The position numbers were made by a program. Positions 44,701 through 47,700 of a DNA stretch of 64,000 nt are shown here, one piece after another. The stretch comes from Opitutia bacterium (GTDB lineage Bacteria; Verrucomicrobiota; Verrucomicrobiia; Opitutales; Opitutaceae), in the NCBI GenBank assembly GCA_947478395.1, contig CANJVR010000002.1:640001-704000 (forward strand), read 5' to 3'. The first letter of the stretch is position 1. Every line of letters starts with the position of its first letter.

Positions 44701-47700
44701 TCTCCGAACTCGAAGGCTATTTCACACACGGACTGCGCGATGCCACGGGCTATGGCCTCTCGCGACTGCGACTAGGCGCAAAACGAGAACAGACACTCGA
44801 TGAAAATCACCCGTTGGCGTGGAGCTACGGCGTCGACTTCTACACTCCCCTCAGCCGGCCCCCGCGCGAACTAAGCGATGGCTTCCGCCACACCACGCCC
44901 TACGTCGCAATCACGCGGCAGGTGGTCCCGAGGTTGAAACTCATCGGTTTTGCGTCAGTCGGTGCGGATCTGATCGACCACACCCAACTCACCCCAAATT
45001 TCGGGCGCAACCAACTGCACGGTAACTCGACCTCCGCAGCCGCCGGCGTCACCCGCCAATGGGGGCGATTCCGGACCGCGTTGACCACGACGTGGTCGAC
45101 GACCGCGCTCATCGGGGACGAGAACCGCCACGTCTATGCGATCCGTCCCGACATCCTGATTCCTCTGAATATTCGAGAAGGTCATCATACCCGACTGCTG
45201 CTCACTTTGGGCACACGTGCGATCTGGGGGCCGGACGGCTTTGAGTCCGGCATCAGCAGCAGTGTGCGAGTGGAGTTCAGCGCCTACGCCTCACCAAAAA
45301 AAGGCAACTGACTCGCGCCGGACGAAGCTGCACCCAGCGGTCGCGATCAGTGAAGGGACCACAGCCAGACACCCGCATGCAGACTCGCGCAGGCCGCGAG
45401 CGCGGCGGCCAGGTCATCCCCGACCACGCCCCAGCCACCGGGTAGATTTTGGAGCCGGGCAATACCCAGCGGTTTTAGAATATCGAAAAAACGAAACAGC
45501 GCGAAACCGGCTAGGGCCAATCCCCACACCGGCACGGTCGCGATGAGCGCCGGCCATCCGATGAAGCAAAGGGGCATCGCCACAAACTCATCCAGAATCA
45601 CTTCACCTGGATCTTTTTTTCCGAGTCGCACTTCGGCTTCACCGCACAATCCGACGGCCAGATACGCCGCGGCGAGACCGACGGCGAGCGCCCAGCCGCC
45701 ATCGAGCCATCGAAAAATTCCCGCGCAATAGACCAAACCCACGAGCGAACCCCACGTGCCCGGTGCCGGTAACTTTACTCCGATCGGGCCGAGCGTCGCA
45801 CATCCCACCACCAAAGCCATCGGCAGCGATCGAGGCCAACTCGGTCGGACGAAGCTCATGGCCGTCCGTCGAGCAACACATGCCGATGCCGTCTGAAATA
45901 GGCCGAGCCCGACGTCACCGTCAGGATGGCGGACAGGACGAAGAGGGCCAGCCCCAGCCCTTGCACCGCCGTGACCTGCCAGTGCTCGGCCCCGCGGAAT
46001 AATTCGCCAAAGTCCTTTTCCAGCATTCGAGCGCCGAGCATCCAGCCGATGGCATTGAGTTGGATAAACGTTTTCAGTTTTCCGCTCGCGTCGGCTTCGA
46101 CGATGACGCCTTTCGACGCCGCGACCATCCGCAGCCCCGAAATCATGAATTCCCGCCCTAGAATGCACAGCAGAAGCATCGTGCCTGCGATCTTGTGGCC
46201 CATGAAGTAGTCCTCGCCCGCGACGAATGCGATCATGATGCCGAGCACCATAACCTTGTCGATGACCGCATCCATGAAACGCCCGAACGTCGTGACCTGC
46301 CCGCTTTCACGCGCGAGTTTTCCGTCGAGCCAGTCCGTGAGCGCCGCGGCCACAAACAGCCAGAACGCGCTCGTCGCCGCCCACTGAAAATCCGAATTCA
46401 TGAGGGCGACGATGGCAAACATCGCGGGCAAACGGGAAAACGTCAGAATGTTAGGCAGGGTCATTCGAGGGGCAGAACGGGACAAACGCATGCAGCCGAG
46501 CCGAAATCAAGTGCGGAGCCAATCATACCCGTGACGCTCGCATGAAAATTCGCGCCGAGCCTTGCCGGAAGATGGAGCCTTGGCGGCCGGCTGGACTGGC
46601 CGGGAAATGGCGCCCCGATAAAATTTTCCTCCCCCTTTGAAAGCGCACCGGGCGGCCCGCCCGCGCCGCCTCATCCCAACTCGGGTGCTGAAAACGTCAT
46701 CGCCAATCCTCTTCTGCTCGTTTTCTTTGGCACCCCGTCATGCGTCACTGCATCTATCCCGGGACTTTTGATCCCATCACCCACGGACATCTCGATGTGC
46801 TCGCGCGCGCCGCGAAGTTATTCGATCGCGTGACGGTGGCCGTCGCGCTCAACACGGGCAAAGGCCCGCTGTTTACCGCCGAAGAGCGGCTCGCGATGTT
46901 GCAGCCGAACTTGGCTGCGATGCCCAACGTCACGGCGACGATCTTCGGCGGATTGCTCGTGGACTTCGCGCTCGAGCAAAAAGCCGATGCGATCATCCGC
47001 GGCCTGCGCGCCCTCTCCGACTTTGAATTTGAATTCAACATGGCACTGATGAACCGGCACCTCCAGCCCAAGATCGAAACCATCTTTGTGATGCCCAACG
47101 AACAATTCAGTTACACCAGTTCCACCCTCGTGAAACAGGTCGCAAAATTCGGCGGCGACATCGCTCATTTCGTTCCGGCCAACGTCGCGGCCGAATTAAA
47201 GAGGGCCTACCGTCGGTAGCCCACCCGCCGCGCCGCCCGCGAAAGTCCCGAAGCGATTCGCGTCCCGGGCGGTGCAAACAATGCCCTAAAGATTTTTACG
47301 TCACCTTTTAATTAACCCTTCGTCTTGGCTCCCGTTGCCAGCTATCGGGGAATAGCCTAAAAAACTCTACCCGCATCGGCTGCAACACGTTTCAACTCCA
47401 CAATTTCTCCTCACTCAACTTCGTCATGGCCAAATCAAAAAGCTACGGTGGTATCATTTTTATCATAATCGTCATCCTCGCTGCCGCGGGCGGCACCGGA
47501 TACTATTTCTTCGGACGGCCCGAAAAACAGCCGGAGTATTCGACCGTTAAAGTGAGCAAGGGAAACATAGTGCAAAGCATTAGCGCCACCGGCGCACTTC
47601 AGACGACCTCCCAGGTCACCATCAGCAGCCAGGTATCCGGCAACGTCGTCGAAATTGGCGCCGACTTTAACGATAAGGTCAAAAAGAACCAGATGCTCCT

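Follow-up and report, generated by a model that had tools for sequence, protein, structure and literature searches.

Introduction

To our knowledge, PanK, CoaBC, CoaD and CoaE are regarded as near-universal among bacteria, host-restricted ones excepted. Among the mycoplasmas, those in the Spiroplasma and Hominis groups that have PPAT and DPCK only have been proposed to scavenge 4'-phosphopantetheine (PMC8721197). A 2025 review describes the excretion of this compound by both E. coli and L. lactis, counts among the open gaps how phosphorylated CoA intermediates are transported, and states that E. coli has no known uptake system for 4'-phosphopantetheine and cannot reuse it, a point that counts against import (PMC12570885). 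Yeast Opt1 imports 4'-phosphopantetheine as its glutathione disulfide, and Fig. S15 of the same study, which deals with microbiome species lacking CoA enzymes, may list bacteria that have CoaD and CoaE alone (PMC12406275). A table covering 2,228 gut genomes counts 91 with PanK, CoaD and CoaE and 25 with no enzymes of the pathway, and contains no class with CoaD and CoaE alone (PMC6593275).

Here we describe a genome of the family Opitutaceae in which CoaD and CoaE are present and the enzymes that precede them were not found. We think it probable that the organism imports 4'-phosphopantetheine and finishes CoA with these two enzymes.

Results

The coaD locus and the remains of the CoA pathway

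The genome (G000 in our set) comprises 3.31 Mb in 9 contigs and is 98.83% complete and 0.43% contaminated; gene calling with a hexamer model gave 2,559 genes, whose products were screened for motifs and inspected by eye. The window, by which we mean the whole stretch of 64,000 nucleotides analysed, is C2:640001-704000. On its forward strand, at window positions 46740..47219, lies a canonical coaD, encoding a phosphopantetheine adenylyltransferase of 159 aa, as judged from the translation and a TIGR01510 score of 192 bits (cut-off 103.3); its TxGH motif and its length are likewise those of a bacterial PPAT (~160 aa). CoaD would be the entry point of what remains of the CoA pathway. Lake and reservoir MAGs are among its closest named relatives, which share 89-92% identity with it, and the habitat of these relatives, together with the genome size, suggests a free-living habit.

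Divergent from coaD, on the reverse strand at window positions 45347..46464, are two genes that we take, from their sequences, to be pgpA- and pgsA-like; they have best matches in 58 and 65 of 80 coaD loci, and the pair is conserved coaD context with no part in CoA salvage. Downstream, on the forward strand at window positions 47426..51044, are genes presumably encoding a membrane-fusion protein, an ATPase and a permease of MacAB type, with best matches in 47-53 of the 80 loci; these are of the exporter type and nothing ties them to CoA uptake. The names dapL, pgsA, pgpA, macAB, mraZ, gnd, gmk, clpB, nadB and M13 peptidase are all presumptive in this sense, having been assigned from the sequences themselves.

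Outside the window, we located coaE at C1:212146-212730 on the forward strand (TIGR00152, 140.8 bits; cut-off 65.6), and, both on the reverse strand, a panE-family gene at C2:623753-624688 (TIGR00745, over cut-off) and a degenerate panC, which we call panC* (product PanC*), at C2:627224-628066 (PF02569, E 1.3e-87). The initial annotation had listed CoaD, CoaE and PanC- and PanE-family genes as retained, and the family models match all four at these coordinates. It had also listed PanK, CoaBC and PanB/PanD as absent, and both the family searches and profiles built from Opitutaceae sequences came back empty in this genome. With family models, Pan_kinase (type III PanK), Flavoprotein (CoaC) and PanB were not found; PRK gave nothing over cut-off, the best hit (E 0.012) covering a Walker-A motif only; and Fumble (type II PanK) gave no match, the control here being weak as 0 of 14 control genomes exceeded the cut-off. 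The sole DFP match is the 22.9-bit partial one described earlier, located in an RmlD-like reductase. The profiles, which drew on all the Opitutaceae lineages collected (24 sequences for CoaB, 20 for CoaX, 18 for CoaC, 18 for PanB and 6 for PanD), reached a best E of 0.035 among 47,145 six-frame ORFs of this genome. Having no PanK, CoaB or CoaC, the organism can make no use of pantothenate.

We considered an archaeal PoK/PPS route and rejected it: PPS (PF02006) was not found in this genome and had matches in 0 of 5 genomes searched, CoaBC is absent, and the four GHMP kinases picked out by motif or visual inspection score as IspE, GalK, HddA-like and ThrB.

Spread of the loss through the family

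We searched 301 Opitutaceae genomes, each at least 85% complete, and refer to those without both DFP and Pan_kinase as double-negatives (lists compiled by hand from the result tables). DFP and Pan_kinase are each found in 237 genomes; 233 have both, 60 have neither and 8 are discordant. The double-negatives span 16 genera (10/14 genomes of g1, 9/13 of g16, 6/11 of g26, 6/13 of g39, 3/3 of g8, and others), and ten of them are 99-100% complete. Contrasts between genera compare kin that are not independent, and their significance is overstated to that extent. Strong DFP had been reported in 4 of 17 congeners, and we obtained the same count; Pan_kinase, left unsearched in congeners until now, occurs with DFP in the same 4 of 18 genus genomes, as do Flavoprotein and PanB, all four families being jointly absent from the other 14. 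In our phylum sample 74 of 75 other genomes have DFP, close to the earlier figure of 60 of 60 other Verrucomicrobiota, so the loss is rare outside the family set. The initial description of a loss in one clade falls short of this spread.

CoaD behaves differently from the families just described: it was detected in 291 of the 301 genomes (missing in 10) and in 55 of the 60 double-negatives. The five double-negatives without a CoaD match include four congeners that are 85-93% complete. CoaE was assessed in the genome described here, which shows the CoaD+CoaE-only genotype as far as its 9 contigs go. The literature that we covered, which leaves out most subscription journals, yielded no report of such a loss in Verrucomicrobiota or of a degenerate PanC.

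Mobile pan-coa cassettes

In the four pathway-bearing congeners the genes lie together as a cassette, panB-panC-coaC-coaB-coaX, which in two of these genomes also contains panD, and the cassettes are of two unrelated types, fused in G004 and split in G005 (its sister in the PanC tree), G006 and G011. A tree of 30 CoaX sequences contains three lineages, corresponding to the gene at the birA site, the split-CoaB/C cassette and the fused-CoaBC cassette (support 100/100 for the first two), and a single clade for the CoaX of the four congeners is rejected (p-AU 1.3e-67). Cassettes occupy different sites in most genomes, have host-like GC and often adjoin nadA-nadC-nadB. NadA is kept in 8 of 9 double-negative congeners, though it is missing from the present genome, and a metagenome scan with a cassette-linked NadA returned 8 close loci out of 80, some with and some without upstream pan genes. 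These patterns would be consistent with a scenario in which the ancestral scattered genes (coaX beside birA, and a stand-alone coaB) were lost in many Opitutaceae, and compact mobile cassettes (panB-panC-coaC-coaB/coaBC-coaX-panD, often with nadACB) now give some genomes the pathway and are missing from others. An ancestor without the pathway may have regained it, or an ancestral cassette may have been lost repeatedly.

Eight fused-type cassettes carry tandem hairpins with a bulged A 5' of panB. In the stems, 90% of cells are paired and 5 pairs have two-sided changes, figures that come from the same eight sequences from which the structure was derived. The arrangement is like that of the pan RNA motif (PMC2864571) in its tandem bulged-A hairpins and their position, and unlike it in having no Rfam match at gathering score, with no pan-family match at E<=10 in one leader tested. 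The motif had no match at E<=1 in the present genome (150 of 959 candidates scored) and none under E 0.1 in three other double-negatives.

The imported precursor and its possible carriers

The initial annotation proposed uptake of 4'-phosphopantetheine or a close precursor, and this stands as the best reading: the retention of CoaD in 55 of the 60 double-negatives points to 4'-phosphopantetheine as the entry compound. The organism would be unable to make 4'-phosphopantetheine and would obtain it from outside, either free, or split off CoA or dephospho-CoA ahead of uptake, or in a mixed disulfide that a peptide-type transporter carries; CoaD and then CoaE would convert the imported compound to CoA. 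Most likely, about one-fifth of the sampled family genomes scavenge a nearly finished precursor in this manner, by an uptake route new to bacteria.

Our screen of this genome by motif and by eye, which may miss unrecognised kinases and transporters, identified no precursor transporter. An Opp system with three OppA-like proteins is a plausible candidate for the 4'-phosphopantetheine carrier. OPT was rejected as a general bypass, with no member in this genome; among the double-negatives, this genome, G032 and G297 were searched, and the latter two do have OPT genes, one of them ~3 kb from panC*. Two neighbours of coaD were also set aside. An SsuA/THI5-type ABC system is near coaD in 10-20 of 80 loci, and in this genome lies beyond four intervening genes, beside an amidase; a Yej-type peptide ABC operon is upstream of coaD in G231 and in 5 of 80 loci, its permeases being only ~30% identical to genes of the present genome.

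Pantetheine or pantethine might instead be imported and phosphorylated by an unrecognised kinase other than PanK, the chief alternative, which we regard as rather unlikely. Pnu permeases trap their substrates through phosphorylation, and the best candidate in this genome is a PnuC permease paired with a NadR-type P-loop kinase (C1:757092-758229); a second AAA_28 protein is encoded at C3:360651-361250. PnuC is present in 51 of the 60 double-negatives versus 152 of the 241 other genomes and in 14 of 14 sampled genus members, and it occurs also in congeners with NadA (12 of 13). Pantetheine shunts, moreover, are common, being represented by 91 gut genomes (PMC6593275). However, nine double-negatives have no PnuC, including all six of g39, and on this count we rejected PnuC/NadR as a general bypass. 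The pair matches nicotinamide-riboside models, and in a genome that lacks nadA and nadC and has CinA/PncC and NadD it is more simply explained by nicotinamide-riboside (NAD) salvage, since the latter two are present. The assignments of the four GHMP kinases given above also speak against a hidden kinase among them. The pantetheine shunt itself (Apn) was rejected, as searches found no type I/II PanK in this genome, with a weak control for type II, and no full-length PRK in five further double-negatives.

Lineage loss or assembly gap

The gene coaX comes after birA in five relatives and, in four of them, immediately before an ABC ATPase gene. In the present genome birA (C5:41978-42973) and the ATPase gene (C5:43024-44025) are 50 bp apart in the middle of contig C5, and, by comparison with the gene order in relatives, the interval C5:42974-43023, outside the window, is an empty coaX site. 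In the region close to which several relatives have a stand-alone coaB, this genome has a 785-bp gap without homology, and three cassette insertion sites of relatives, all inside its contigs, hold no cassette. The earlier view that this is a lineage loss and not an assembly hole is supported by the empty ancestral coaX site, by the co-absence of the families and by absences much more frequent than dropout of a single gene, which for CoaD amounts to 10 of 301.

We think it improbable that a cassette exists in every PanC*-bearing genome and, lying in variable regions, dropped out of the metagenome bins. Such dropout would agree with the absence of double-negatives among the 23 genomes assembled in 1-3 contigs, five of which belong to genera with double-negatives; this count fits equally well a bias of closed or cultured genomes towards prototrophs. 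It would agree also with the second PanC match seen wherever a pathway-positive genome has a degenerate PanC (25 of 25), with the two keeper cassettes that sit on contigs of 3.5 and 5.2 kb, and with the variation of cassette sites from genome to genome. Repeats are present among the matches listed for the contig ends of the present genome, and a cassette could possibly lie within a gap between its 9 contigs. Against this explanation, the GC of cassettes resembles that of their hosts and their neighbours are ordinary genes, ten of the double-negatives reach 99-100% completeness, and the three cassette sites of relatives are empty inside the contigs of the present genome. Furthermore, both markers are kept in 13/13 genomes of each of the MAG-rich genera g20, g42 and g48 and in 12/13 of g45, as against 4/13 in g16, 4/14 in g1 and 0/3 in g8, and the pathway genes of g48 form a single block in the one genome of it that was inspected. 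Finally, the 12 genera in which the sampled PanC copies are intact contribute 77 genomes and no double-negative.

It is very unlikely that dephospho-CoA or CoA itself is imported and CoaD kept for recycling only. Such a route has been proposed for host-restricted, DPCK-only mycoplasmas (PMC8721197), and the four double-negative congeners without a CoaD match would be in keeping with it. It is at odds with the presence of CoaD in 55 of the 60 double-negatives, its motifs intact in the seven full-length copies inspected; AcpH, which could feed recycling, was not found, and a TLC-family transporter had no match in this genome and two other double-negatives, in a search in which the control genomes gave none either.

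A retained, degenerate PanC

A PanC match is present in 288 of the 301 family genomes. The copy in the present genome resembles PanC (TIGR00018; PDB 2ejc and 1mop) in its full length, its modelled fold (TM 0.88), its score over the TIGR00018 cut-off and its database name. It differs in having HAGQ for HxGH, GQKTAQR for G-x-K-D-x-Q-Q and GVRN for S-S-R-N, that is, at the second His of the HIGH motif and at the equivalents of D161, Q164, S196 and S197; on the residue numbering of PMC5772511 the changes are H47Q, D161T, Q164R, S196G and S197V, and the equivalents of H44, N69, Q72, K160 and R198 are kept. In M. tuberculosis PanC the H47A mutation lowers activity 1000-fold, and S196, S197 and D161 touch ATP in simulations; the mutants described there are alanine mutants, with no H-to-Q change or loss of the serines (PMC5772511).

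Among 70 aligned copies of the vertically inherited PanC, 19 are intact (HxGH, GQKDAQQ, SSRN), 11 have lost SSRN and kept the second His, and 40 have in addition the H-to-Q and Q-to-R changes. All 26 double-negatives in the alignment carry a degenerate copy. A second PanC match accompanies the degenerate copy in 25 of 25 pathway-positive genomes, and 18 of the 19 genomes with an intact copy have a single match. PanC* shows no decay: the 40 sequences have a mean identity of 67% in the N domain and 72% in the C domain, compared with 74% and 68% for intact copies, and a basic C-terminal surface is conserved in both alike. When motif columns are removed, the PanC tree places the 40 in one clade (SH-aLRT 96), and it traces the loss of SSRN alone to at least three separate origins. 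A quick-search tree of the neighbouring DapL did not recover this clade and forced at least four changes, and the bearers of PanC* need not be one organismal clade. In the present genome the dapL-panC inverted repeat occurs once.

Judging from these sequences, PanC* is probably a pseudoenzyme with a second role. The native PanC may have lost its catalytic residues where it had become redundant or pointless and been kept for a second, probably non-catalytic function; any binding of a 4'-phosphate by the new arginine is speculative. PanC* cannot be a general bypass, as eight of the 60 double-negatives have no PanC match at all. The argument of the initial annotation that a retained PanC implies an unknown kinase or ligase is not supported: the protein lacks adenylation residues, those eight genomes do without it, and every sampled relative with both PanC* and the pathway has a second PanC match.

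We can all but dismiss the idea that PanC*, repurposed as a ligase and provided with pantoate by PanE, serves a new de novo route (it might, for instance, couple pantoate or 4-phosphopantoate with beta-alanyl-cysteamine and so yield (phospho)pantetheine without CoaBC), since the joint fixation of H37Q and Q153R (40/40 in a group defined by Q37, 0/19 in intact copies), the single clade, the 67-72% identity, the largely kept K160, R198, N69 and Q72 equivalents and the retained panE-family gene are to be set against loss of the Ser-Ser ATP-phosphate motif, which varies freely in the 11 further sequences and was lost at least three times, the eight double-negatives without PanC, the absence of PanB and PanD, which leaves no precursor supply visible, and a basic C-terminal surface that is common to intact copies and fits a second, non-catalytic role.

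Discussion

The 60 double-negatives and their close pathway-positive relatives form a natural knockout panel for the missing transporter or kinase, and import of 4'-phosphopantetheine would call for a specific supplement in media for those freshwater Verrucomicrobiota that are uncultured. More tentatively, dozens of environmental Opitutaceae species in 16 genera might live on 4'-phosphopantetheine from their community through what would be the first bacterial uptake of a phosphorylated precursor, with a dead PanC*, its arginine in the pantoate pocket, as the sensor or binder of this compound, and with cassettes that switch prototrophy. If true, cassette-switched prototrophy and dependence on 4'-phosphopantetheine would help to explain why such lineages are hard to culture. 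Our results also suggest that, for many Opitutaceae, pathway reconstructions err if they treat PanC* as active, and they offer in PanC* a conserved, probable pseudoenzyme for the study of its second role.

Several described systems share features with the one reported here. As in genomes with the pantetheine shunt (Apn), CoaBC is missing, CoaD and CoaE are kept and a sulfur-containing precursor is needed; the shunt as described requires PanK, however (PMC6593275), and none was found in this genome. Opt1 of yeast (PMC12406275) and TcyJKLMN of B. subtilis (PMC11487621) indicate that the precursor could enter by way of a peptide or cystine transporter, although the present genome has no OPT, and TcyJKLMN imports unphosphorylated pantetheine and depends on CoaA. 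The mycoplasmas with PPAT and DPCK only are alike in having CoaD and CoaE alone, but they are host-restricted, wall-less and reduced, whereas the present genome is of 3.3 Mb, belongs to a Gram-negative lineage with kin among lake and reservoir MAGs, and comes from a family in which cassettes toggle the pathway. What is new here is that the CoaD+CoaE-only genotype of host-restricted bacteria recurs in environmental genomes of a Gram-negative lineage, and that a conserved, probable PanC pseudoenzyme is found alongside mobile prototrophy cassettes.

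NAD metabolism

As with the early CoA genes, nadA and nadC were not found in the studied Opitutia genome (G000), and the nadC-birA-coaX block known from its relatives is cut down to birA (C5:41584-44025). PnuC and an NadR-type kinase (C1:757092-758229), CinA/PncC and NadD are all present, and the organism is likely a nicotinamide-riboside auxotroph. NadA falls into two score classes within the family, which suggests that NAD synthesis, too, is carried about on cassettes.

The dapL-panC intergenic region

Outside the window, dapL and panC diverge from a region that contains a perfect inverted repeat, its two halves separated by 12 bases (C2:628098-628131, corresponding to L011:2369-2402). 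Most Opitutaceae loci conserve it irrespective of the state of their PanC, intact or degenerate, and within G000 it occurs as a single copy. The repeat is a candidate operator or, alternatively, could represent two overlapping divergent promoters. Elsewhere in G000, a dispersed repeat of ~66-100 bases gives ~100 matches over all contigs (for example C6:1-100), one contig end being among its sites.

Genomic surroundings of coaD and panC

Near coaD, a row of three genes (window 39796-42589, forward strand), which we take to encode a methyltransferase, an FAD oxidoreductase and a type III polyketide synthase, is conserved in 27-34 of the 80 sampled coaD neighbourhoods. Peptide ABC genes are close to coaD at five of these 80 loci (L186, L192, L206, L208 and L238). 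In G231 (L428:9573-16402), one of the double-negative genomes, that is, those lacking both DFP (CoaB) and Pan_kinase (PanK), coaD is preceded by a co-oriented Yej-type operon for peptide ABC transport. OPT-family transporters were seen near the degenerate native panC (panC*): downstream of panC*-panE-M13 peptidase in G297 (L167, L336), and at a distance of 8-25 kb in G116 (L260; recognised by eye) and G032 (L335).

Several genomes stand out. Two double-negatives of genus g39, G126 (L423) and G223 (L424), are small (2.3-2.7 Mb), have 43% GC around coaD as against 56-70% at other loci, and gave no matches to PanC, PnuC or NadA. In the double-negative G003, a distant intact PanC sits on a contig that is short (4,081 bp) and has a lower GC content (C151; L045); it is possibly contamination. 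The congener G011 carries native-type coaB and coaC alongside a split cassette (L418 = C21, L044 = C354, L040 = C338), for which retention, transfer and contamination are candidate explanations. The sole other DFP-less genome in the phylum sample, G371, belongs to the same order, measures 1.7 Mb at 99% completeness and may reflect an independent loss.

A hairpin RNA upstream of panB

In all eight fused-type (coaBC) cassettes examined, panB is preceded by a tandem hairpin RNA with bulged adenosines (L039:11115-11213 and L267:13369-13464, reverse strand; L265:6809-6908 and L266:7097-7205, forward strand; and L268, L269, L270 and L271). The RNA was not found at the split-type cassettes examined, nor in G000. 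Although it has no Rfam match, its tandem hairpins and bulged adenosines upstream of panB resemble those of the described pan motif.
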